39,178 bases of DNA, taken from UHGV virus genome UHGV-0034768, one strand, 5' to 3'. Below the pieces are notes generated by a model that made no database searches, was not told where the DNA came from, and was given only the letters and a program-made list of their open reading frames with translations. Both the position numbers and the translations under genes were made by a program. This DNA comes from a virus. Within the stretch, counting starts at the first letter, position 1, and every line of letters begins with the position of its first letter. Shown here one piece after another: positions 2,033 to 37,021 of this stretch.

Positions 2033-2197
2033 ATGTTACGAAAACTTAAAGCTAGCTACCATCGGTTCATGTACAAATGGTGGAGCGACGAAGCAACATG
2101 CCTGTCAAACATTCTAGGAGAACAGAGGTTCGACTCTAAGGCATGGAAGAAGGCTAACCGTAAGTTCATGTACCACTTCTTGCGTACAGACTTCTAG
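2033..2197 (+). CDS. hypothetical small protein (gene 4.x position)
   Basis: ORF after gene 4; second ATG chosen because GGAGGG lies 9 nt upstream; no recognised domain. Confidence 0.45.
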   Translation: MLRKLKASYHRFMYKWWSDEATCLSNILGEQRFDSKAWKKANRKFMYHFLRTDF

Positions 2198-2260
2198 GTC
2201 TAGACTCAAGGTCATTCACAGAGAGTGGCCTTTATGATTAGACTAAACGGAGGATTAACC

Positions 2261-6011: not shown

Positions 6012-6137
6012 TTTACTGGGCCGGACTTCTGGCCCTTTACTGCATGTACAAGTGGTTTGGGTCAAACAACCGTCCTAAACACTGAGTCTAACAGATAGTC
6101 ATATCCTATCAATCCTACAGTCATCCATAGGTGAAAC

Positions 6138-6160
6138 ACTAAACTATCACTATAGGGACT
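6138..6160 (+). promoter_or_regulatory. phage RNAP promoter (phi6.5 position), ACTAAACTATCACTATAGGGACT
   Basis: Full match to the window's promoter consensus; +1 G at 6155. Confidence 0.85.
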
Positions 6161-6221
6161 TTAGGACCTAAGATATGACTATAAGATAGACTTTAGTCTT
6201 AACTTAAAGAGGAGATTCAAG

Positions 6222-9979: not shown

Positions 9980-10081
9980 CCAAGAGACAGACTCAAGGTT
10001 TCCCTATTACTTCAGTCCATACGGATTGGGCATACAGTAAGTAATAAACTTTATCTTTCAATTGAATAGGAGAATTATCAT

Positions 10082-11131
10082 ATGGCAAACGTTCCGGGTC
10101 AGAAAATTGGTACAGACCAGGGTAAAGGCAAATCCAGTTCCGACGCTCTGGCGTTGTTCCTGAAGGTCTTTGCTGGTGAAGTCCTGACCGCATTCACTCG
10201 CCGCTCTGTAACTGCTGACAAGCATATTGTCCGTACCATTCAGAACGGTAAGTCTGCTCAGTTCCCGGTAATGGGTCGCACATCTGGTGTGTATCTGGCT
10301 CCGGGTGAGCGACTGTCCGATAAGCGTAAAGGTATCAAACATACCGAGAAAGTGATTACCATTGATGGTCTGCTGACTGCCGATGTGATGATTTTCGACA
10401 TTGAAGACGCGATGAACCACTATGACGTGGCTGGCGAGTACTCCAACCAGTTGGGTGAAGCTCTGGCTATCGCCGCTGATGGTGCGGTTCTGGCTGAAAT
10501 GGCCCTCCTGTGTAACCTCCCAGCTGCATCCAACGAGAACATTGCCGGTCTGGGCACTGCGTCAGTACTTGAAGTTGGTACTAAAGCCGACCTGAACACT
10601 CCGGCTAAGCTGGGTGAAGCAATCATCGGTCAACTGACCATTGCTCGTGCGAAGCTGACCTCCAACTACGTTCCTGCTGGCGACCGTTACTTCTACACCA
10701 CGCCGGACAACTACTCTGCAATCCTCGCGGCCCTGATGCCGAACGCTGCTAACTATGCTGCTCTGATTGACCCAGAGACTGGTAACATCCGTAACGTGAT
10801 GGGCTTCGTTGTTGTTGAAGTCCCGCATCTGGTGCAGGGTGGTGCTGGTGAGACCCGTGGTGACGATGGTATCACTATCGCTTCCGGACAGAAACACGCA
10901 TTCCCGGCGACTGCTGCTGGCGACGTTAAAGTTGCTATGGACAACGTTGTGGGTCTGTTCTCTCACCGTTCTGCTGTGGGTACTGTGAAGCTGCGTGACT
11001 TGGCGCTGGAACGTGACCGTGACGTCGATGCTCAGGGTGACCTGATTGTTGGTAAGTACGCTATGGGTCACGGCGGCCTGCGTCCAGAAGCGGCAGGAGC
11101 ACTGGTTTTCACAGCGGCGCTGGGGGGTTAA
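10082..11131 (+). CDS. gp10A: major capsid protein 10A
   Basis: 349 aa, strong RBS AGGAGA, Tphi-like terminator downstream; size and position as T7 gene 10A. Confidence 0.95.
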   Translation: MANVPGQKIGTDQGKGKSSSDALALFLKVFAGEVLTAFTRRSVTADKHIVRTIQNGKSAQFPVMGRTSGVYLAPGERLSDKRKGIKHTEKVITIDGLLTADVMIFDIEDAMNHYDVAGEYSNQLGEALAIAADGAVLAEMALLCNLPAASNENIAGLGTASVLEVGTKADLNTPAKLGEAIIGQLTIARAKLTSNYVPAGDRYFYTTPDNYSAILAALMPNAANYAALIDPETGNIRNVMGFVVVEVPHLVQGGAGETRGDDGITIASGQKHAFPATAAGDVKVAMDNVVGLFSHRSAVGTVKLRDLALERDRDVDAQGDLIVGKYAMGHGGLRPEAAGALVFTAALGG

Positions 11132-11394
11132 CGACCTTTAAGGCCCTCTCTACAGAGGGTCCTACCTTAGAGACGTACAGTTCTACGGTGGGGACCAGCC
11201 TGAAGGTTGACTTCCCTGAGCTTTCAGATGTGACCGATTGGTCGCTGCTTGAGGTGACTACGCCTGATGGTGTTAGCTACTCCCGTAGAACCAACAGTCT
11301 CTACTTCAAGGCCACCTCTGGCGTGGAAGGTCTGGTGATTGTTGGGTATGACGGTTCGCCTGTGCGTTCCTTCAACGTATCTTTCACAAACTAA
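10082..11394 (+). CDS. gp10B: minor capsid protein 10B via programmed -1 frameshift
   Basis: Heptamer G GTT TTC at 11104-11110, about 20 nt before the 10A stop; the -1 frame is open from the heptamer to TAA at 11392-11394, hand-checked codon by codon. Confidence 0.6.
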
Positions 11395-11397
11395 TTG

Positions 11398-11440
11398 AAA
11401 CCCCTTGGGTGCCTTCGGGTGCTTGAGGGGTTTTTTTGCT
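11398..11440 (+). terminator. Tphi-like late terminator
   Basis: AAACCCCTTGGGTGCCTTCGGGTGCTTGAGGGGTTTTTTTG: GC-rich hairpin plus U-run, very close to T7 Tphi (AACCCCTTGGGGCCTCTAAACGGGTCTTGAGGGGTTTTTTG). Confidence 0.85.
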
Positions 11441-11452
11441 TAAGGAGGGCCT

Positions 11453-12019
11453 ATGGCTCAATACATTCCACTGAATGCTAACGATGACTTAGACGCCATC
11501 AACGATATGTTAGCTGCTATCGGTGAACCAGCAGTCCTACAGCTTGACGAGGGGAACGCTGACGTCTCTAACGCTCAACGTATCCTGCACCGTGTCAATC
11601 GTCAGGTCCAAGCTAAAGGATGGAACTTTAACATAAACGAAGCTGCTGTCCTAACACCTGATGTCCAAGACAATAGGATTCGATTCTTGCCGTCATACCT
11701 TCGTGTAATGACCGCTGGGGCCACCAGCTACTACAGCAACATGGGTGGATACCTGTACGACCTGTCCACTCAGTCAACCACTTTCACCGACCCTATCACG
11801 GTAGAGCTTGTGGAGATGAAGCCATTCTCCGAGATGCCTGTGGTCTTCAGGGACTACATCGTCACTAAAGCTAGCCGTGAGTTCAACGCTAAGTTCTTCG
11901 GTAGCCCAGAGTCAGAGATATACCTTCGTGAGCAGGAAGCAGAACTCTATCAGCAGGTTATGGAGTACGAGATGGACACTGGTCGCTACAACATGATGTC
12001 TGACATCGGGAGGGACTAA
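11453..12019 (+). CDS. gp11: tail tubular protein A (T7 gp11-like)
   Basis: 188 aa, RBS AAGGAGG, synteny after capsid and terminator. Confidence 0.85.
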   Translation: MAQYIPLNANDDLDAINDMLAAIGEPAVLQLDEGNADVSNAQRILHRVNRQVQAKGWNFNINEAAVLTPDVQDNRIRFLPSYLRVMTAGATSYYSNMGGYLYDLSTQSTTFTDPITVELVEMKPFSEMPVVFRDYIVTKASREFNAKFFGSPESEIYLREQEAELYQQVMEYEMDTGRYNMMSDIGRD

Positions 12020-12246
12020 TGGCTAGTCACAACCTGAAGATTCACCGCCAGCACTTTGGTCCGGTACAGCTAGGTCTAAAGACAGCAGAGCTGAGACTTA
12101 ACGACCGGGACTTTAAGGTTGGCGATTGGCTTATCCTGAATGAGTGGGACAACGGGTATACTGGACAACAGGTAGCACGTAAGGTTGTCCACATTGCTGA
12201 CGTTGGTGACATCGCTGAAGGATACGTCCTAATGAGTATGATTTAA
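12019..12246 (+). CDS. DUF3850/ASCH-like small protein (PUA-like fold), inserted between tail tube genes
   Basis: 75 aa; motif pattern H.LKI....F..V..G.K..E.R.NDR.FKVGD.L.L.EWD..YTG......V..I......GYV.MS typical of DUF3850; ATG overlaps the gp11 stop (TAATG). Confidence 0.7.
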   Translation: MASHNLKIHRQHFGPVQLGLKTAELRLNDRDFKVGDWLILNEWDNGYTGQQVARKVVHIADVGDIAEGYVLMSMI

Positions 12247-12255
12247 GGAGGACAC

Positions 12256-14613
12256 ATGCCGCTTATCACACAAAGCATAAAAAATCTTAAGGGTGGCATT
12301 AGCCAACAGCCTGACATCCTTAGGTTCTCAGACCAAGGCGAGGCACAGGTTAACTGCTGGTCATCCGAGAGTGATGGCCTCCAGAAGCGCCCACCTACAG
12401 TCTTCAAGCGACGTCTTAACATCGACGTTGGAAGCAACCCTAAGTTCCACCTGATTAACCGTGATGAGCAGGAGCAGTATTACATCGTGTTCAACGGGTC
12501 CAACATTCAGGTAGTGGACTTAAGTGGTAACCAATACTCAGTTTCCGGTGCGGTAGATTACGTTAAGTCCTCAAACCCGCGAGATGACATCCGCGTCGTT
12601 ACTGTGGCAGACTATACGTTCGTCGTTAACCGTAAGGTTGTAGTCAAAGGTGGAAGCGAGAAGTCACACCCAGGTTATAACCGCAAAGCACGAGCTTTAA
12701 TTAACCTACGTGGTGGCCAGTACGGTCGAACCCTTAAGGTTGGAATCAACGGAGGAGTCAAGGTCTCACATAAGCTACCAGCAGGTAATGATGCCGAGAA
12801 TGACCCTCCTAAGGTGGACGCTCAGGCCATCGGTGCAGCTCTGAGAGACCTTCTTGTTGCTGCTTACCCATCATTCACGTTCGACCTTGGGTCTGGCTTC
12901 CTGTTAATCACGGCACCTTCAGGGACTGACATTAACTCAGTAGAGACGGAGGATGGCTACGCTAACCAGCTAATCAGCCCAGTACTCGACACAGTGCAGA
13001 CAATCTCTAAGTTGCCTCTTGCAGCTCCTAATGGATATATCATTAAGATTCAGGGGGAGACCAACAGTAGCGCCGATGAATACTACGTGATATATGACTC
13101 CAACACTAAGACGTGGAAGGAGACAGTGGAGCCGGGAGTTGTCACTGGGTTCGATGCCACCACAATGCCACATGCTCTGGTCAGACAGTCTGATGGCTCC
13201 TTTGAGTTCAGGACTCTGGATTGGTCCAAGCGCGGTGCTGGTAACGATGACACAAACCCTATGCCTAGCTTCGTGGATGCGGCGATTAATGATGTGTTCT
13301 TCTACAGGAACAGACTTGGGTTCTTGTCGGGTGAGAACGTAATCATGAGCCGTTCAGCCAGCTACTTTGCGTTCTTCCCTAAGAGTGTGGCGACACTGAG
13401 TGATGATGACCCTATTGATGTAGCTGTAAGTAACCCTCGAATCTCAATCCTTAAGTATGCCGTTCCGTTTAGCGAGCAGCTACTACTTTGGTCGGATGAG
13501 GTTCAGTTCGTGATGACAAGCTCTGGGGTACTTACCTCGAAGTCTATCCAGCTTGATGTAGGCTCAGAGTTTGCCCTAGGTGACAATGCCAGACCGTTCG
13601 CTGTAGGACGCTCAGTCTTCTTCTCAGCACCTCGTGGGTCATTCACCAGCATTAAGCGATACTTCGCTGTAGCAGATGTGTCTGACGTGAAGGATGCCGA
13701 TGATACCACTGGTCACGTACTGTCCTATATCCCTAACGGGGTGTTTGACATTCAGGGGACAGGGACTGAGAACTACATCTGCGTCAACTCTACAGGTGCA
13801 TACAACCGAATCTACATCTACAAGTTCTTGTTTAAGGACGGCGTACAGCTTCAAGCCTCTTGGTCGCACTGGGAGTTCCCTAAAGCTGATAAGATTCTGG
13901 CGTCTGCGTCGATTGGCTCTACCATGTTCATTGTTCGTCAGCACCAAGGCGGCGTGGACCTTGAGCACCTTAAGTTCATCAAGGAGGCAACTGACTTTCC
14001 GTTAGAGCCATATAGACTCCACGTTGACTCCAAGGTGTCTATGGTAATACCAATTGGCTCATACAACGCTGACACCTATAAGACTACGGTTGACATCGGT
14101 TCTGCTTACGGTGGAAACGCTCCTTCTCCCGGTCGGTACTATCTTATTGACAGTCAGGGTGCATACGTGGACCTTGGTGAATTAACCGACATCTCAACTG
14201 TGGCTGTACTCAATGGCGATTGGTCAGGACGTACAGTGTTCATCGGGCGGTCTTATCTGATGTCCTACAAGTTCTCACGGTTCCTGATTAAGATTGAAGA
14301 CGAGAGTGGCACTCAGTCTGAAGACACTGGACGCCTACAACTTCGTCGGGCTTGGGTCAACTACAAGGACACTGGCGCTCTTAGACTCATTGTCAGAAAC
14401 GGTGAGCGGGAGTTCGTGAACACCTTCAATGGGTACACCCTTGGCCAGCAAACCATCGGTACTACCAACATTGGGGACGGTCAGTATCGCTTCGCTATGA
14501 ATGGTAACGCATTAACCACGAGTCTAACCTTAGAGTCCGACTATCCTACCCCAGTGTCAATCGTTGGGTGTGGCTGGGAGGCGTCATACGCTAAGAAAGC
14601 TCGTTCCGTCTAA
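12256..14613 (+). CDS. gp12: tail tubular protein B (T7 gp12-like)
   Basis: 785 aa (T7 gp12 is 794 aa), RBS AAGGAGG, synteny. Confidence 0.9.
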   Translation: MPLITQSIKNLKGGISQQPDILRFSDQGEAQVNCWSSESDGLQKRPPTVFKRRLNIDVGSNPKFHLINRDEQEQYYIVFNGSNIQVVDLSGNQYSVSGAVDYVKSSNPRDDIRVVTVADYTFVVNRKVVVKGGSEKSHPGYNRKARALINLRGGQYGRTLKVGINGGVKVSHKLPAGNDAENDPPKVDAQAIGAALRDLLVAAYPSFTFDLGSGFLLITAPSGTDINSVETEDGYANQLISPVLDTVQTISKLPLAAPNGYIIKIQGETNSSADEYYVIYDSNTKTWKETVEPGVVTGFDATTMPHALVRQSDGSFEFRTLDWSKRGAGNDDTNPMPSFVDAAINDVFFYRNRLGFLSGENVIMSRSASYFAFFPKSVATLSDDDPIDVAVSNPRISILKYAVPFSEQLLLWSDEVQFVMTSSGVLTSKSIQLDVGSEFALGDNARPFAVGRSVFFSAPRGSFTSIKRYFAVADVSDVKDADDTTGHVLSYIPNGVFDIQGTGTENYICVNSTGAYNRIYIYKFLFKDGVQLQASWSHWEFPKADKILASASIGSTMFIVRQHQGGVDLEHLKFIKEATDFPLEPYRLHVDSKVSMVIPIGSYNADTYKTTVDIGSAYGGNAPSPGRYYLIDSQGAYVDLGELTDISTVAVLNGDWSGRTVFIGRSYLMSYKFSRFLIKIEDESGTQSEDTGRLQLRRAWVNYKDTGALRLIVRNGEREFVNTFNGYTLGQQTIGTTNIGDGQYRFAMNGNALTTSLTLESDYPTPVSIVGCGWEASYAKKARSV

Positions 14614-14620
14614 CTTATTG

Positions 14621-14670
14621 AAGGGCCTATAGATTTACCTTAACTATCACTATAGGGACTATAGGCCCTT
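14621..14670. repeat. perfect 12-bp inverted repeat (AAGGGCCTATAG / CTATAGGCCCTT) bracketing the phi13 promoter
   Basis: Read directly; 26-nt spacer contains the promoter core; candidate RNase III-type processing hairpin in read-through RNA. Confidence 0.6.
14638..14660 (+). promoter_or_regulatory. phage RNAP promoter (phi13 position), CTTTAACTATCACTATAGGGACT
   Basis: Consensus match; +1 G at 14655. Confidence 0.8.
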
Positions 14671-14689
14671 AAGGTTATAAGGAGACTTT

Positions 14690-15160
14690 ATGTATATTCG
14701 CAAGGCTACGGAACCAGATGTCCACTACTTTCTGTGGCATCTTTCAGCAGATGATGTTAATGAGTGCAAAGCAAACTATGGGTCAACCGTTGGTCTCTCT
14801 GAAAGACTGCTTAAGCACCTATCTCCGTCATCTGTGGTTTTAACGAACGGTGTAGGCGAAGTGTTTGCTTATGGGGGAAACCAAGGGGATAACGTATGGT
14901 TCTTGACTTCCGGTCTTGTCTATAAGCTGAGACCTAAAGAGAAGCGAGAGTTCATAAAGCGTATCTCTGAGTACAGGGACTTAATGTTAGACCAATACGG
15001 GACCATCTGGAACTACGTGTGGTCAGGCAATAAGTCTCACATTAAATTCTTGAAGTTGCTTGGGGCTAAGTTCCATGATGATTGGACTATCAGCCCGGTA
15101 ACTGGTGAGCGTTTTCAATTATTCACTATCTCTAAGGAGGACGTATGTGTGAACCCGTAA
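14690..15160 (+). CDS. gp13: internal virion protein A (T7 gp13-like)
   Basis: 156-aa ORF with AAGGAG RBS, synteny. Confidence 0.8.
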   Translation: MYIRKATEPDVHYFLWHLSADDVNECKANYGSTVGLSERLLKHLSPSSVVLTNGVGEVFAYGGNQGDNVWFLTSGLVYKLRPKEKREFIKRISEYRDLMLDQYGTIWNYVWSGNKSHIKFLKLLGAKFHDDWTISPVTGERFQLFTISKEDVCVNP

Positions 15161-24830: not shown

Positions 24831-24940
24831 ATCTCTTAAGTGTTAGACTCAAGGTCCTTACTATATGTAGGGGCCTTTATGGTTAACACTAACTAGTGGA
24901 GGCGACTCTACGTGAAATCTGATAAACCGGGAGGGCAACT

Positions 24941-25405
24941 ATGCTCGAATTTTTAAAGAGAGCGGCTCCGTGGTTACTTGCAGCAGTGATGTTTGCTGGT
25001 GGCTACCACACCGCTAACAATAAGTGGGAGGCTAAGGTCAATGCAGAATACACCTCGAATCTTAAGGCATCGGAAGATACAAGGCTTGCTGTCCAAGCTG
25101 AAGTCAACAAAGTGTCCAAGCGGTTTCAGGACGAAATGTCCTCGCTGGAAGGCAGCACTGATAGGATTATTGCTGACCTTCAGTCTGACAATAAGCGGCT
25201 GCGCATCCGAGTCAAACCTACGAGTGGAACCACGCAAAGTGACGGTCGATGCGTCATTGATGGTTACGCCGAACTTGACGAACGAGATGCTAAACGTCTT
25301 ATCGCCATCGGATTAAAAGGAGACTCGTGGATTAAGGCCCTTCAAGATACTGTTCGTAAACTTCAACAAGACCGGGGTAGCTATGGGAATTATAATAACA
25401 ACTGA
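24941..25405 (+). CDS. gp18.5: i-spanin Rz (T7 gp18.5-like)
   Basis: 154 aa; N-terminal TM segment; matches T7 gp18.5 (MLEFL, LEGSTDRII.DL.SDNKRLR.RVK, RDAKR, ALQDT.R.LQ). Confidence 0.9.
   Translation: MLEFLKRAAPWLLAAVMFAGGYHTANNKWEAKVNAEYTSNLKASEDTRLAVQAEVNKVSKRFQDEMSSLEGSTDRIIADLQSDNKRLRIRVKPTSGTTQSDGRCVIDGYAELDERDAKRLIAIGLKGDSWIKALQDTVRKLQQDRGSYGNYNNN
25041..25316 (+). CDS. gp18.7: o-spanin Rz1 (T7 gp18.7-like), embedded in the +1 frame of Rz
   Basis: Embedded ORF with basic N-region, hydrophobic stretch ALIGLLLTFSLTISG and lipobox Cys (LTISGC); ATG at 25041 is 100 nt into Rz, as in T7; start not certain. Confidence 0.6.
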   Translation: MQNTPRILRHRKIQGLLSKLKSTKCPSGFRTKCPRWKAALIGLLLTFSLTISGCASESNLRVEPRKVTVDASLMVTPNLTNEMLNVLSPSD

Positions 25406-26168
25406 GACAGACGTGGTGTGGCACTACACTACAGGAGACCCTAGTGGTCGAAAGAACGCATCCGGGCATCTCCAAGAAGGTACTATAGAAGTTGTGGTTC
25501 CAGAGAATGCGCTGACAGCACGCCTGTACGTGACTGGAGGTCTGACGGTAAGCAAAGACTTCACGTCTACTTTCGGCTGGCCTATAACTGTAGGTGGAGT
25601 GACCGTGGAGAGACTCTGGGTCGATTCCGATGGCGAGACAGTCCTGAGTGTCTCATCTACCACTGGTAACGGTGTAGTAAAGATTGAGTACGACTGGGAG
25701 AAGACCAGACCTATTGACCACGCTGAATACACACTAGACGTCCGTAACTGGACAGGAACTAAGGAGTGTCCCGCTGGTGTGTTCACTGAGATTGTTAGTC
25801 TTCCGTGGGTAAAAGTCATAGATGCGAACGTAGTGTCAATCACAGGGTCTACCCTCAAGTTCCCGGCTATGGATGGTCTAAGCACATTGGTCTTCGCTGT
25901 GAGACTTACTGGTACGTATCCTACCCAATCCGAGCACACATGGTCTGTCATTATTCGAAGACCTACAGGTCAGGTACTATCAGTAGTACAGGAGGCTGAC
26001 AACAAGGTATCGTTCTCCACTCGTGAGACTACTATTCACAGCTACATTGCAGACATAGACGACCCGTTCGTGACCTCTGGTGTGGTGATTGGTGTGGAGA
26101 ATACCTCATCTCAGGCCCTGACTTTAACAGCCATAACGTTGCGTATAGAGCGCATATTTAACGTATAA
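25383..26168 (+). CDS. hypothetical 261-aa beta-rich protein inserted between the lysis cassette and terminase large subunit
   Basis: Long ORF with T/V/S/G-rich composition; overlaps the Rz end by 23 nt; no counterpart in T7 where gene 19 follows 18.5 directly; function unknown. Confidence 0.7.
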   Translation: MGIIITTETDVVWHYTTGDPSGRKNASGHLQEGTIEVVVPENALTARLYVTGGLTVSKDFTSTFGWPITVGGVTVERLWVDSDGETVLSVSSTTGNGVVKIEYDWEKTRPIDHAEYTLDVRNWTGTKECPAGVFTEIVSLPWVKVIDANVVSITGSTLKFPAMDGLSTLVFAVRLTGTYPTQSEHTWSVIIRRPTGQVLSVVQEADNKVSFSTRETTIHSYIADIDDPFVTSGVVIGVENTSSQALTLTAITLRIERIFNV

Positions 26169-26180
26169 GGAGGTGACGCA

Positions 26181-27944
26181 TTGAGTAAAGACTTAGTGGC
26201 GCGTCAGGCGCTAATGACTGCCCGTATGAAGGCAGACTTCGTGTTCTTCCTGTTCGTCCTGTGGAAAGCTCTGTCACTCCCAGTCCCGACTCGCTGTCAG
26301 ATTGACATGGCGAAGAAACTATCGGCTGGGGACAACAGGCGTTTCATCCTACAGGCGTTCCGTGGTATCGGGAAGTCCTTCATTACGTGTGCCTTCGTGG
26401 TATGGAAACTATGGAACAACCCAGACTTGAAGTTCATGATTGTGTCGGCCTCAAAGGAGCGAGCCGATGCTAACTCCATCTTCATCAAGCGCATCATCGA
26501 CCTCATGCCTCAGCTTCAGGAACTCAAACCTAAGCAGGGACAGCGAGATGCGGTTATCAGCTTCGACGTTGGACCAGCCAAGCCAGACCACTCACCCTCG
26601 GTTAAGTCCGTTGGTATCACTGGTCAGTTGACTGGTAGTCGTGCTGACATCCTGATTGCCGATGACGTGGAGGTTCCTAACAACTCTGCGACTCAGGCTG
26701 CGCGAGATCGACTTTCAGAGCTTGTGAAAGAGTTCGACGCTATCCTGAAGCCGGGAGGTACAATCATCTATCTGGGTACTCCTCAGAACGAGATGACCCT
26801 ATATCGTGAGCTGGAAGGCCGTGGGTACACCACTACTATCTGGCCAGCTCGTTATCCACGCGACAGGAAAGACTGGCAGTCTTACGGCGACCGTCTGGCA
26901 CCGATGCTTCAGGCAGAGCTAGAAGAGGACCCTGAGTCATTCTACTGGCGTCCTACCGATGAGGTACGATTCGATGATACGGACCTGAAGGAACGTGAGC
27001 TATCCTATGGTAAAGCTGGCTTCGCTCTACAGTTCATGCTTAACCCGAACCTGAGTGATGCTGAGAAGTACCCTCTGAAGCTCCGTGACCTTATCGTAGC
27101 AGACTTGGACCCAGCGTCCAGCCCAATGGTATACCAATGGTTGCCAAACCCTCAGAACAAGCGTGAGGACGTTCCTAACGTTGGACTCATGGGTGACTCA
27201 TACCACACGTATCAGACTGTAGGTTCTGCCTTCAGCTCATACACCCAGAAGATTCTGGTCATTGACCCTAGTGGTCGTGGTAAGGATGAAACTGGATATG
27301 CGGTACTGTATCAACTCAACGGCTACATCTTCGCTATGGAAGTTGGTGGTATGCGTGGAGGGTATGAAGACTCTACGCTGGAAGCATTGGCTAAGATTGG
27401 TCGTAAGTGGAAGGTCAACGAATACGTCATTGAGGGTAACTTCGGTGATGGTATGTACCTTGAGCTATTCAAGCCTGTAGCGGCCCGTATCCATCCTGCG
27501 GCTGTAACTGAAGTGAAGAGTAAGGGTCAGAAAGAACTCCGCATCTGTGACGTTCTGGAGCCTATCATGGGGTCTCACAGACTTATTGTTAACGCTGCTG
27601 CTATCGTCCAAGACTACCAGACAGCTGCCGACAAGGATGGTGTGCGTAACCCTATCTACTCTCTCTTCTACCAGATGACCCGTATCTCTCGTGAACGTGG
27701 AGCCTTGGCACACGATGACAGACTTGATGCGCTGGCTATAGGTGTACAGTTCTTCGTTGAGTCTATGGCTAAGGATGCCAACAAAGGTGAACGTGAAGTC
27801 ACTGAGGAGTGGCTTGAGGAACAGATGGAGAACCCACGGAAAGGCTTCGAGTCCATCCACACTGAGTTCTGGGACAATGGGGTCCGGGTAACTCACGATA
27901 CGGACGACGAGCTGGGACTAGGGTCATACGTTACGTTCCACTAG
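26181..27944 (+). CDS. gp19: terminase large subunit (T7 gp19-like)
   Basis: 587 aa; TTG start with AAGGAGGTGA RBS; blocks [68 protein letters not shown] match T7 gp19. Confidence 0.95.
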
Positions 27945-28400: not shown

Positions 28401-28559
28401 CGCAATCATGGTAACGATTCACGAGCGGAAGACCTAAGGTCAGTACGTGGATAAAGACTCACTCTACTGACCTTAGCTACTGTAGTCAAGGACTTTAGGT
28501 AACACCTTAAGAGAAGCTCACTTAGGGTCATCCTACTTATTGGTCTATCCTAGTGTCGC

Positions 28560-29210: not shown

Positions 29211-29398
29211 GTACCACATCGAAACAACAGTGATGACCAACACTGAAATGGTCTACCTGAAGTCCTCTGACTGAAGGGAATGCTCTTTAACAATCTGGAT
29301 AAAACTCTTAATGTGCGCCGATAGCGACTAACTACAGGGCCTTTGAGTATACATCTGAAGGCCCTGACTGATAGTCACTAACTTAAAGGATGGACACT

Positions 29399-29644
29399 AT
29401 GAAACACTTAAGCACAATCACTAATCGCAATGAAATATTCGTGAACACTAAAGGTTATGCGTGGATTCAGCTTAAAGAGCTGACAGGAGCGCGTCACCGT
29501 GTGGTAGTGCGCAAGGTCTCAAGCAAGCCGTTCAGCAACTACAGCGTAGATACTGTGCGTATAGACAACGAGACCTACCTGATAGACTCGCAGATAACCG
29601 TGCGTCCTACAGCGGGCGTCCCAGCTCCTTATTTCGCTAACTGA
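29399..29644 (+). CDS. hypothetical early protein (first gene after the early promoters, upstream of ocr)
   Basis: 82-aa ORF (second ATG chosen, AAAGGA 7 nt upstream); preceded by a structured leader; no recognisable domain. Confidence 0.6.
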   Translation: MKHLSTITNRNEIFVNTKGYAWIQLKELTGARHRVVVRKVSSKPFSNYSVDTVRIDNETYLIDSQITVRPTAGVPAPYFAN

Positions 29645-29732
29645 GAGTGATTAACTACAGGTCGTTAGACTCATAGCGGCCTGACTGATAGCCACTAACA
29701 TACGCACTAACAACTTTTGAGAGGATATAACT

Positions 29733-30077: not shown

Positions 30078-30226
30078 TAGTAACTTATGGTCTCTGCAAG
30101 CACCACGTCACCAACGCCAGGATTTTGGTCAAGACCGGGCGGTTAAACCACGATGCGGCTATGCGTCACCTGAAAGCGGTCTACGAGGACCGCAAGCGCA
30201 CCCACGACAGCTTACACGCTGAGTGA
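30074..30226 (+). CDS. possible gp0.4-like small protein (T7 gp0.4 inhibits FtsZ)
   Basis: 50-codon ORF not in the supplied track, GTG start overlapping the ocr stop; product ..TYGL....[13 protein letters not shown]....LHAE resembles recalled T7 gp0.4 (..QYGL....AMAQLKELYENNK....ESAE). Confidence 0.45.
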
Positions 30227-30292
30227 TAGACGAGAGGTCATCGACTGATAGGTGGCCTCAAAGATTATCACTTACATTGATAGGAGTTAACT

Positions 30293-33973: not shown

Positions 33974-34453
33974 ATGTTCGGTAAGTCAAAACTTAAAGCA
34001 CAAATCAAAGAGTTGAGCATGAAGGTGGCATACTTGGAGCGAGTCGTAACGGTCCGGGATAAGGACAACGAGAGGCTGAAGGTTAAACTTGCTGAATCAG
34101 AGCGTAAGCGCCTGACACCACCAGCGGCTGTAACTGTCAAGCGTATGGTAGGCATCAAGTTCAAGGCACTGTTCAACGGGCTGTACCAACCGACTGAGTT
34201 CAAGACAGGGCCTGGTAGCTGCGGGAAGAACGTTAAGCATTTCACCATATCGAAGACTGAACGCACCATTACCATCCACCAGCACCACGTAGACGGGTCT
34301 CAGAAAGACTTTGAGTACCGACTGAGCGACATCGATGGTCGCATCCAGTATGACTACGAGCGGGTTAAGGTCTATGGCGAGGAGGCAGAGCAGGAACGTA
34401 TAGTACAAGCCTTACGCAACAGACAACGATTATACCCTAAACTATCACTATAG
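33974..34453 (+). CDS. hypothetical protein (159 aa; N-terminal heptad-like helical region)
   Basis: ORF with GAAGAGG RBS; no T7 counterpart between gene 1 and gene 1.1; function unknown. Confidence 0.6.
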   Translation: MFGKSKLKAQIKELSMKVAYLERVVTVRDKDNERLKVKLAESERKRLTPPAAVTVKRMVGIKFKALFNGLYQPTEFKTGPGSCGKNVKHFTISKTERTITIHQHHVDGSQKDFEYRLSDIDGRIQYDYERVKVYGEEAEQERIVQALRNRQRLYPKLSL

Positions 34454-34458
34454 GATTA
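34436..34458 (+). promoter_or_regulatory. phage RNAP promoter (phi1.1 position), CCTAAACTATCACTATAGGATTA
   Basis: Consensus match; +1 G at 34453; overlaps the stop of the upstream ORF. Confidence 0.8.
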
Positions 34459-34529
34459 GACTCAAGGTCATGACTCAAAGTCGTGGCCTTCATGATTAAC
34501 CCTATAACCTAAACAACTGGAGCTACAAC

Positions 34530-36862: not shown

Positions 36863-37021
36863 ATGACTGAGGTTGAGAAGAAATACATCGTGGAGCTTGA
36901 GGGTCGCGTTCAGTCCTTCGAGGTTCCGGTGTACGCAAAGTCTCTTGAAGAGGCTACCCTGAAGTCCCAAGAGTATGAGGACGCTGGGTTCGTGGTCGGA
37001 CGGATTCGTCCTGAGACCTAA
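36863..37021 (+). CDS. gp2: gp2-like inhibitor of host RNA polymerase
   Basis: 52 aa; [15 protein letters not shown]....YEDAGF.VGRIRP resembles T7 gp2 HSFEVPIYAETLDEA...YVPAGFEVTRVRP; RBS GGAAGGAG. Confidence 0.8.

Follow-up and report, generated by a model that had tools for sequence, protein, structure and literature searches.

How does a phage promoter come to lie inside a perfect inverted repeat, and what does the repeat do? The question is raised by the spacer between genes 12 and 13 of a viral genome (UHGV-0034768), which we analysed as one stretch of 39,178 nucleotides, hereafter the window. An initial annotation had described a perfect 12-bp repeat around the promoter phi13 and proposed that transcripts arriving from upstream fold it into a candidate RNase III site like R13 of phage T7.

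The window is a circularly permuted Kayfunavirus genome, K1F-like and of the T7 group, in which the T7 gene order is otherwise kept. A 2-kb query around the site matched 222 phage records, nearly all of them Kayfunavirus, with top identities of 96-97.5%. The landmarks are:

Near 299: start of gene 4.
11397-11434, plus strand: Tphi-like intrinsic terminator upstream of gene 11, a 17-pair stem and then a T-run.
12256-14613: gene 12 (tail tubular protein B), with its stop codon TAA at 14611-14613.
14679-14684, plus strand: Shine-Dalgarno sequence AAGGAG of gene 13, read directly from the sequence.
14690-15160: gene 13 open reading frame, ATG at 14690, Pfam PF11090 Phage_T7_Gp13 (E = 1.9e-42).
Near 31 kb: RNA polymerase gene.

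Tphi at 11397-11434 is the sole terminator that a terminator scan returned in 11100-14800, and a consensus scan gave no phage promoter match between 9962 and 14643. Because Tphi lies upstream and this interval holds no promoter, RNA across the gene 12-13 junction is read-through over genes 11-12, as in T7. The element sits in the intergenic spacer and on the transcribed strand, which is the location of an R13, and its parts are arranged as follows:

14611-14615, plus strand: 5' strand of the lower stem, UAACU, beginning with the gene 12 stop TAA (RNAalifold consensus and minimum-energy fold).
14621-14632, plus strand: 5' arm of the upper stem, AAGGGCCTATAG, at promoter positions -34 to -23, non-coding and upstream of the promoter.
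14633-14658, plus strand: apical loop of 26 nt, promoter positions -22 to +4.
14638-14660, plus strand: promoter phi13 (-17 to +6) from the consensus scan, with its putative start at G14655.
14659-14670, plus strand: 3' arm of the upper stem, CTATAGGCCCTT, promoter positions +5 to +16.
14671-14676, plus strand: 3' side of the internal loop and junction, AAGGTT, the putative RNase III cleavage zone in read-through RNA.
14673-14677, plus strand: 3' strand of the lower stem, GGUUA (RNAalifold consensus and fold).

The repeat is present just as it had been described: two arms of 12 nt each, exact reverse complements of one another (100% complementary), 26 nt apart and with the promoter inside the loop. 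Of inverted repeats that are perfect over at least 12 bp and have a loop of 3-60 nt, the window has two; in 200 first-order Markov simulations the mean was 0.125 and the highest count 2, and the repeat is confirmed as real and in excess of chance. The promoter consensus has 11 copies in the window, where 0.27 would be expected, and ACTATCACTATAGGGA at 14643-14658 is among them; the identical 23 bp (14638-14660) are annotated as the 'phi13' promoter in the EcoDS1 record and as a K1F-consensus promoter in the ASO2B record. By analogy with T7 we place the transcription start at G14655. Together with the promoter's own CTATAGGGA, the 3' arm makes up a 9-nt tandem near-duplicate, CTATAGGGA followed by CTATAGGCC; it is a near-copy 9 nt downstream of the promoter start, and the entire promoter is therefore inside the loop.

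This geometry bears directly on which transcripts can fold. The fold predicted for read-through RNA has an energy of -27.8 kcal/mol (dinucleotide shuffles: z = -3.06 and -3.27) and consists of the 12-bp upper stem and a lower stem, with an asymmetric internal loop between them, so that the long hairpin proposed for read-through transcripts is borne out by structure prediction, with z about -3. The companion claim, that transcripts initiated at phi13 contain only the 3' arm, also holds: with +1 at G14655, the 5' arm at -34 to -23 and the 3' arm at +5 to +16, such RNA carries the 3' arm alone, and RNA from 14655 folds at -9.8 kcal/mol (z +0.84), a leader without significant structure. Two lower stems compete in the single sequence of the window. 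UAACU/GGUUA is the one kept among relatives, and in alternatives seen among the minimum-energy folds AUAAG or GGAG from the ribosome-binding region is the pairing partner. A duplex-energy scan of all 11 promoters, which is too permissive a measure, put phi13 at -29.2, about 1.2 sd below the genome background of -22.7, whereas phi6.5 stood out at -38.5. Rfam gave no match at the gathering threshold in the whole window, the nearest to the site being a meaningless lncRNA match (E = 3.3). An intrinsic terminator was considered and ruled out, given the 26-nt loop, the lack of a U-run and the lack of a terminator-scan match.

The element was found in 222 phage records, 123 of which are at least 99% identical to it over 105 nt, and K1F and EcoDS1 do not differ from the window sequence at the element. 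For a closer view of conservation we used 24 IMG/VR loci, RDN8.1, K1F, EcoDS1 and three divergent GenBank relatives, which together gave 18 distinct variants; over this region most relatives share 95% identity or more. All 18 variants keep a 9-bp core, GGCCUAUAG/CUAUAGGCC, and the 5-bp lower stem, and 93% of all cells are paired. The 3' arm is unchanged in 18 of 18, and the core of the 5' arm, GGCCTATAG, is invariant save for one A-to-G change that retains a G-U pair. In the lower stem, where RNAalifold pairs columns 11-15 of the alignment with 73-77, 17-18 of the 18 variants keep four of the pairs unchanged and the fifth alternates between U-A and U-G; single unpaired cells occur in two of the lower-stem pairs. 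The third pair from the stem base, a G-C, is kept in six variants and broken in the other 12. The perfect 12 bp is thus the state of a sub-clade, and the invariant core is 9 bp.

The gene 12 end adjoining the hairpin varies freely among relatives, and in three loci (L019, L022, L025) the loop holds another promoter type between two unchanged arms. No compensatory double change was seen within the genus at any of the 19 pairs in the 18 variants. The stem never shows such a change, which makes the within-genus covariation test uninformative, and support for the hairpin therefore comes from invariance and cross-genus analogy rather than from covariation. The conservation of the 3' arm could in part be due to constraints on the initially transcribed sequence. 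An IMG/VR scan for GGCCTATAG-N15-40-CTATAGGCC returned the same phage clade only, plus five unrelated chance or collagen-like matches.

The cross-genus analogy starts from the annotated phages. The T3 record has a stem_loop at 25443-25480, labelled 'RNase III recognition site R13', around phi13 at 25457-25479, between genes 12 and 13; the phiSG-JL2 record annotates the same hairpin-on-promoter layout as R13, and the gh-1 record an equivalent layout as RNase III site R11. For T7 we take R13 to be at 27281. R13 is among the listed RNase cleavage sites of T7 (PMC6938266, PMC5592923) and is described there as a weak one (PMC5592923). The junction hairpins that we folded in other genera, and in a relative with another promoter, were:

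T7 (Teseptimavirus): 15-bp stem, 3' arm at promoter -9 to +6, z -4.2.
Klebsiella phage 066032 (Przondovirus): 16 bp, z -6.4.
Jarilo (Jarilovirus): 17 bp, z -4.9.
285P (Berlinvirus): interrupted stem, z -3.6.
phiSG-JL2 (Teetrevirus): interrupted stem, z -2.7.
gh-1 (Ghunavirus): interrupted stem, z -2.0.
L021, the relative with another promoter: 12 pairs, 3' arm formed by the promoter start, z -1.15 for the whole spacer.

In the other genera the arm sequences are unrelated, and the upstream arm is complementary to the start region of each phage's own promoter. Two phages lack the arrangement: in Vibrio phage JSF34 the promoter directly follows the stop codon and the hairpin is downstream, and in Pseudomonas phage UNO-SLW3 the spacer holds no promoter. 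The upstream arm follows a different promoter start in each genus, which indicates nucleic-acid pairing and not a protein dyad, and an operator or other protein-binding dyad was rejected on this ground.

Set beside R13 of T7 and T3, the element of the window agrees in position, strand, architecture and transcript logic, and the likeness to T7 R13 that had been proposed is upheld. In all three the hairpin is on the same strand and at the same junction, bounded by the gene 12 stop and the gene 13 start; it overlaps phi13, with the 5' arm between stop codon and promoter, and it can form in read-through RNA only. They differ in that the 3' arm of T7 and T3 is the promoter start itself (-9 to +6 in T7, ending at +7 in T3) whereas in Kayfunavirus it is +5 to +16, and in that the stem base and 3' flank resemble the canonical RNase III consensus in Kayfunavirus but not in T7 or T3. 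The arms, AAGGGCCUAUAG in the window, UUCUCCCUGUGGUGG in T7 and GUCUCCCUGCGGUG in T3, have only the promoter-derived CUAUAG/CUAAAG in common, and homology of the arm sequence to T7 or T3 R13 was not found; since the arms track each phage's promoter, arm homology may not be what defines the R13 family. Taken together, the comparisons support the phi13 hairpin as the Kayfunavirus counterpart of the RNase III site R13 of T7 and T3, an ordinary and long-known kind of feature.

Does the element then also belong with the canonical RNase III sites of these phages? A covariance model (R1), built from 11 canonical T3 and T7 sites only, recovered the held-out known sites T7 R0.3, R1.3 and R1 and T3 R1.3 and R1 with 14.5-37.7 bits. 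It gave the phi13 element 4.4 bits on the plus strand and 5.4 bits on the minus strand, which leaves it outside the canonical class, and it likewise missed the annotated T3 R13 and R3.8. With the phi13 hairpin at 4.4 bits and these two sites missed, hairpins of the R13 type are best seen as a separate, non-consensus class. In the window the model returned six canonical sites, all on the plus strand and with 23-57 bits:

2195-2245, plus strand: canonical RNase III hairpin between genes 4 and 5, 43.9 bits.
24837-24892, plus strand: canonical RNase III hairpin at the R18.5 position, 56.9 bits.
29321-29381, plus strand: canonical RNase III hairpin in the early region, 23.2 bits.
29644-29698, plus strand: canonical RNase III hairpin in the early region, 30.7 bits.
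30220-30274, plus strand: canonical RNase III hairpin in the early region, 36.4 bits.
34450-34505, plus strand: canonical RNase III hairpin at the R1.1 position, 49.6 bits.

These sites put another part of the initial annotation in perspective, namely that elements similar to the phi13 repeat and containing GACTCAAGGTC recur at five places. The word is indeed present, exactly at 2203, 24846, 30926 and 34459 and with one mismatch at 9990. The phi13 element itself is without it and is of a different class, and 'similar' is for that reason an interpretation that is only partly right. By the covariance model, 2203, 24846 and 34459 are canonical hairpins. The copy at 9990 belongs to a stem-loop in the phi10 leader, GGGAGACC...GGUUUCCC (z -4.2), of which it forms the 3' strand and which resembles the T7 phi10 leader, and 30926 is unsupported, with a weak fold (z -1.1) and no covariance-model match. 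The three canonical hairpins of the early region, which are without the exact GACTCAAGGTC word, were absent from the earlier list; K1F has two counterparts of them, at 1030-1084 and 1766-1820.

Some likeness to the canonical class is nevertheless visible. Like R0.3, R0.5, R1.1, R4.7 and R18.5, the phi13 element is an intergenic hairpin on the transcribed strand with AAGG/CCUU at the base of the upper stem, which is the invariant base of canonical sites, and with a partly matching 3' flank: GGCCCTTAAGGTTA (14664-14677) agrees in register with the canonical 3' consensus GGCCTTTATGATTA (word GGCCUUUAUGAUUA) at 11 of 14 positions, a level of agreement expected about twice by chance in the window. 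The canonical sites differ in their short apical loops, their 5' half (G/A)ACUCAAGGUC and their 8-bp lower stem, none of which the phi13 hairpin has; of the 5' word it holds AAGG-GCC only. Closer in design is R6.5 of T7 and T3, in which the promoter is likewise in the loop (AAGGUCCCUA, phi6.5, UAGGGGCCUU) and which shares an AAGGNCC... upper stem, a loop of 24-26 nt that takes in the whole promoter (26 nt in T7 R6.5, like the phi13 loop), GGNCCUU as the 3' strand, and an internal loop above a lower stem. R6.5 differs in its genomic position before gene 6.5, in its 60-62 bits on the canonical model, in whose training set it is, against 4.4 for the phi13 element, and in its lower stem and 5' internal-loop consensus (ACUC), which the phi13 element is missing.

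In current records the element has gone without a name. The K1F RefSeq, EcoDS1 and ASO2B records annotate at most a promoter at the junction and carry neither an R13-type hairpin nor the six canonical ones, and among 40 sampled records, of the 222 carrying the element, none had a stem-loop under the element match. A literature search found no paper connecting Kayfunavirus with RNase III. The phi13 hairpin of Kayfunavirus is thus an unannotated feature of a known kind with a modest architectural twist, and the main value of finding it is for annotation. The design of a promoter inside a putative processing hairpin is kept across genera of the T7 group while its sequence is rebuilt to suit each phage's promoter, and the Kayfunavirus version is built from a downstream copy of the promoter start and not from the promoter itself. 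For engineering of K1F-type phages or reuse of their promoters, it means that a 'phi13' excised with its flanks is expected to bring along a strong hairpin that acts on read-through RNA only.

We think that the element is probably an R13-type RNase III hairpin, formed only in late transcripts that read through from upstream, and this is the explanation that fits best. Initiated at phi6.5, phi9 or phi10, such transcripts would get past the leaky terminator at 11397-11434 and continue across genes 11-12. In the read-through RNA the segment just 3' of the gene 12 stop would pair with +5 to +16 of the phi13 unit, giving a 12-bp upper stem (with its 9-bp conserved core), the 26-nt promoter loop and, below the asymmetric internal loop, a lower stem of 5 bp, with some 17-21 stacked pairs in total. 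The host RNase III would most likely make a single cut on the 3' side near 14671-14676, where the canonical cut position is one that we take from T7 R1.1. Such a cut would leave the gene 11-12 message with a protective hairpin at its 3' end and would set gene 13 free with an open ribosome-binding site. Transcripts initiated at phi13 (G14655) would be without the 5' arm, unable to form the hairpin and would have an unstructured leader. The repeat, its excess over chance, the predicted fold with its conservation and the synteny with annotated R13 sites are results of the analysis, whereas we infer the cleavage by RNase III, the position of the cut and the physiological effect. The enzyme of E. 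coli needs about 11 bp between cut and loop and roughly two helical turns, and internal loops limit it to one cut and leave a protective 3' hairpin on the upstream product (PMC1540722). The predicted hairpin agrees with these rules in its 12-bp upper stem, asymmetric internal loop and lower stem of 5 bp (plus 4 bp).

A conserved fold would serve equally as evidence for an RNA structure that functions in read-through transcripts without being a substrate of RNase III, and this we regard as unlikely. The hairpin could be a barrier against exonucleases at a 3' end made by cleavage elsewhere, or it could tune translation of gene 13 if the lower stem holds the region beside the Shine-Dalgarno sequence, and the alternative lower stems do pair AUAAG or GGAG near the ribosome-binding site. 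The weakness of T7 R13 as a cleavage site (PMC5592923) and the position of the phi13 element outside the canonical site model point the same way. However, the partners that would occlude the Shine-Dalgarno sequence (UUCC at 14604-14607 and GUCU at 14608-14611) are in the variable gene 12 end and are not conserved, the syntenic hairpins of T3, phiSG-JL2 and gh-1 are annotated as RNase III sites, and the stem length and internal loop suit the requirements of the enzyme.

A more speculative extension, to which we give rather little credence, is that the promoter-in-hairpin module is a discriminator of transcript origin, born of a 9-nt duplication of the promoter start (CTATAGGGA and CTATAGGCC at phi13, CTATAGGGA and CTTTAGGAC at phi6.5), which would mark exactly the late promoters phi6.5 and phi13 and may double as a DNA-level origin part or a defence signal of the Lamassu type. 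If this were true, read-through and locally initiated mRNAs would meet different fates.

A role of the hairpin or cruciform in the DNA itself, single-stranded or supercoiled, as part of a promoter-dependent secondary replication origin, as a recombination hotspot or as a liability sensed by host defences that recognise hairpins, seems to us highly improbable. The single-stranded DNA folds at -11.5 kcal/mol (z -4.1). The secondary origins of T7 include phi6.5 (PMC8373140), and the hairpin-enclosed promoters of the window are phi6.5 and phi13; moreover, palindromic DNA of a T7 RNase III site triggers Lamassu DdmABC (PMC11707656). Against this, a 26-nt loop disfavours cruciform extrusion, which would also wreck the duplex promoter, no AT-rich origin-like tract follows, gene 13 beginning 20 nt past the 3' arm, and any link of phi13 itself to an origin is tentative. 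The arm in other genera that is complementary to the transcribed promoter start is, besides, the pattern of RNA pairing on a single transcribed strand.

That the repeat is a functionless by-product, a 9-nt tandem duplication (CTATAGGGA and CTATAGGCC) with a chance CCTATAG upstream, hitch-hiking in a young and similar clade, is hardly credible, for although the near-duplicate is visible in the sequence, most relatives are as similar over the region as noted above and compensatory variation is absent, chance would give 0.125 such repeats per genome, the arms are invariant where the loop and the gene 12 end vary and the promoter type is swapped, and independent hairpins of different sequence occur at the same junction in at least six other genera, and it is this selective conservation with repeated independent solutions that makes it so unlikely.

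Apart from the phi13 element, several features of the window deserve mention. The promoter phi6.5 (6143-6158) is inside a long imperfect hairpin (window 6081-6197, -37.5 kcal/mol, z -4.4), the positional counterpart of T7 and T3 R6.5, which has neither the canonical consensus nor a model match; the K1F phi6.5 region has a similar fold. The transcribed starts of the two promoters are alike (GGGACTTTAGGACC at phi6.5, GGGACTATAGGCCC at phi13), and their 5' arms differ in step (TCCTACAGTC and GGGCCTATAG). In Kayfunavirus it is thus R13 that looks canonical-like rather than R6.5, whereas in T7 and T3 the situation is reversed.

Immediately before the RNA polymerase gene, ACTTAACTATCACTATAGGAC at 30913-30936 matches the phage promoter well; the start of this promoter match shares bases with an exact GACTCAAGGTC, and the fold downstream is weak (z -1.1). 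T7 and T3, unlike the window, have no phage promoter before gene 1. A promoter at 231-246 is closely followed by a hairpin at 243-275 (GGGAUGGGAC..GUCCUGUCCC) that begins with the 5' end of the transcript and resembles the annotated T3 R3.8, also a stem-loop at a transcript 5' end. Besides the phi13 repeat, just one further perfect 12-bp inverted repeat has a short loop: CTAAGGTCAGTA at 28434-28445 and TACTGACCTTAG at 28465-28476, with 19 nt between them. It belongs to the non-coding DNA of the genome-end region, where short CCTACAGT and GAC..GGTC repeats abound. An open reading frame of 261 aa (25383-26168) separates gene 18.5 from the large terminase gene. It matched nothing in Pfam, and the K1F annotation has no equivalent of it: there, 18.5 ends at 37000 and gene 19 follows from 37030.

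Finally, the interrupted palindrome GAC-N5-GTC is about fourfold over-represented: the window has 69 copies and K1F has 80, whereas about 17 would be expected and Markov-3 simulations averaged 17.1 (sd 3.9) and did not exceed 27. The excess is also present in every Kayfunavirus locus of at least 9 kb, including K1F (L037), but not in T7 (14 vs 10.5) or T3 (11 vs 9.3), and no mention of it was found in a literature search. Other GAC/GTC spacings occur 10-28 times, and GAC-N3-GTC is absent where about 15 would be expected. The GAC-N5-GTC sites are in all three reading frames (29/16/9) and denser in non-coding DNA. Words like GACTCAAGGTC are over-represented on both strands as well (18 vs 1.0), to which the GAC-N5-GTC excess plausibly contributes.
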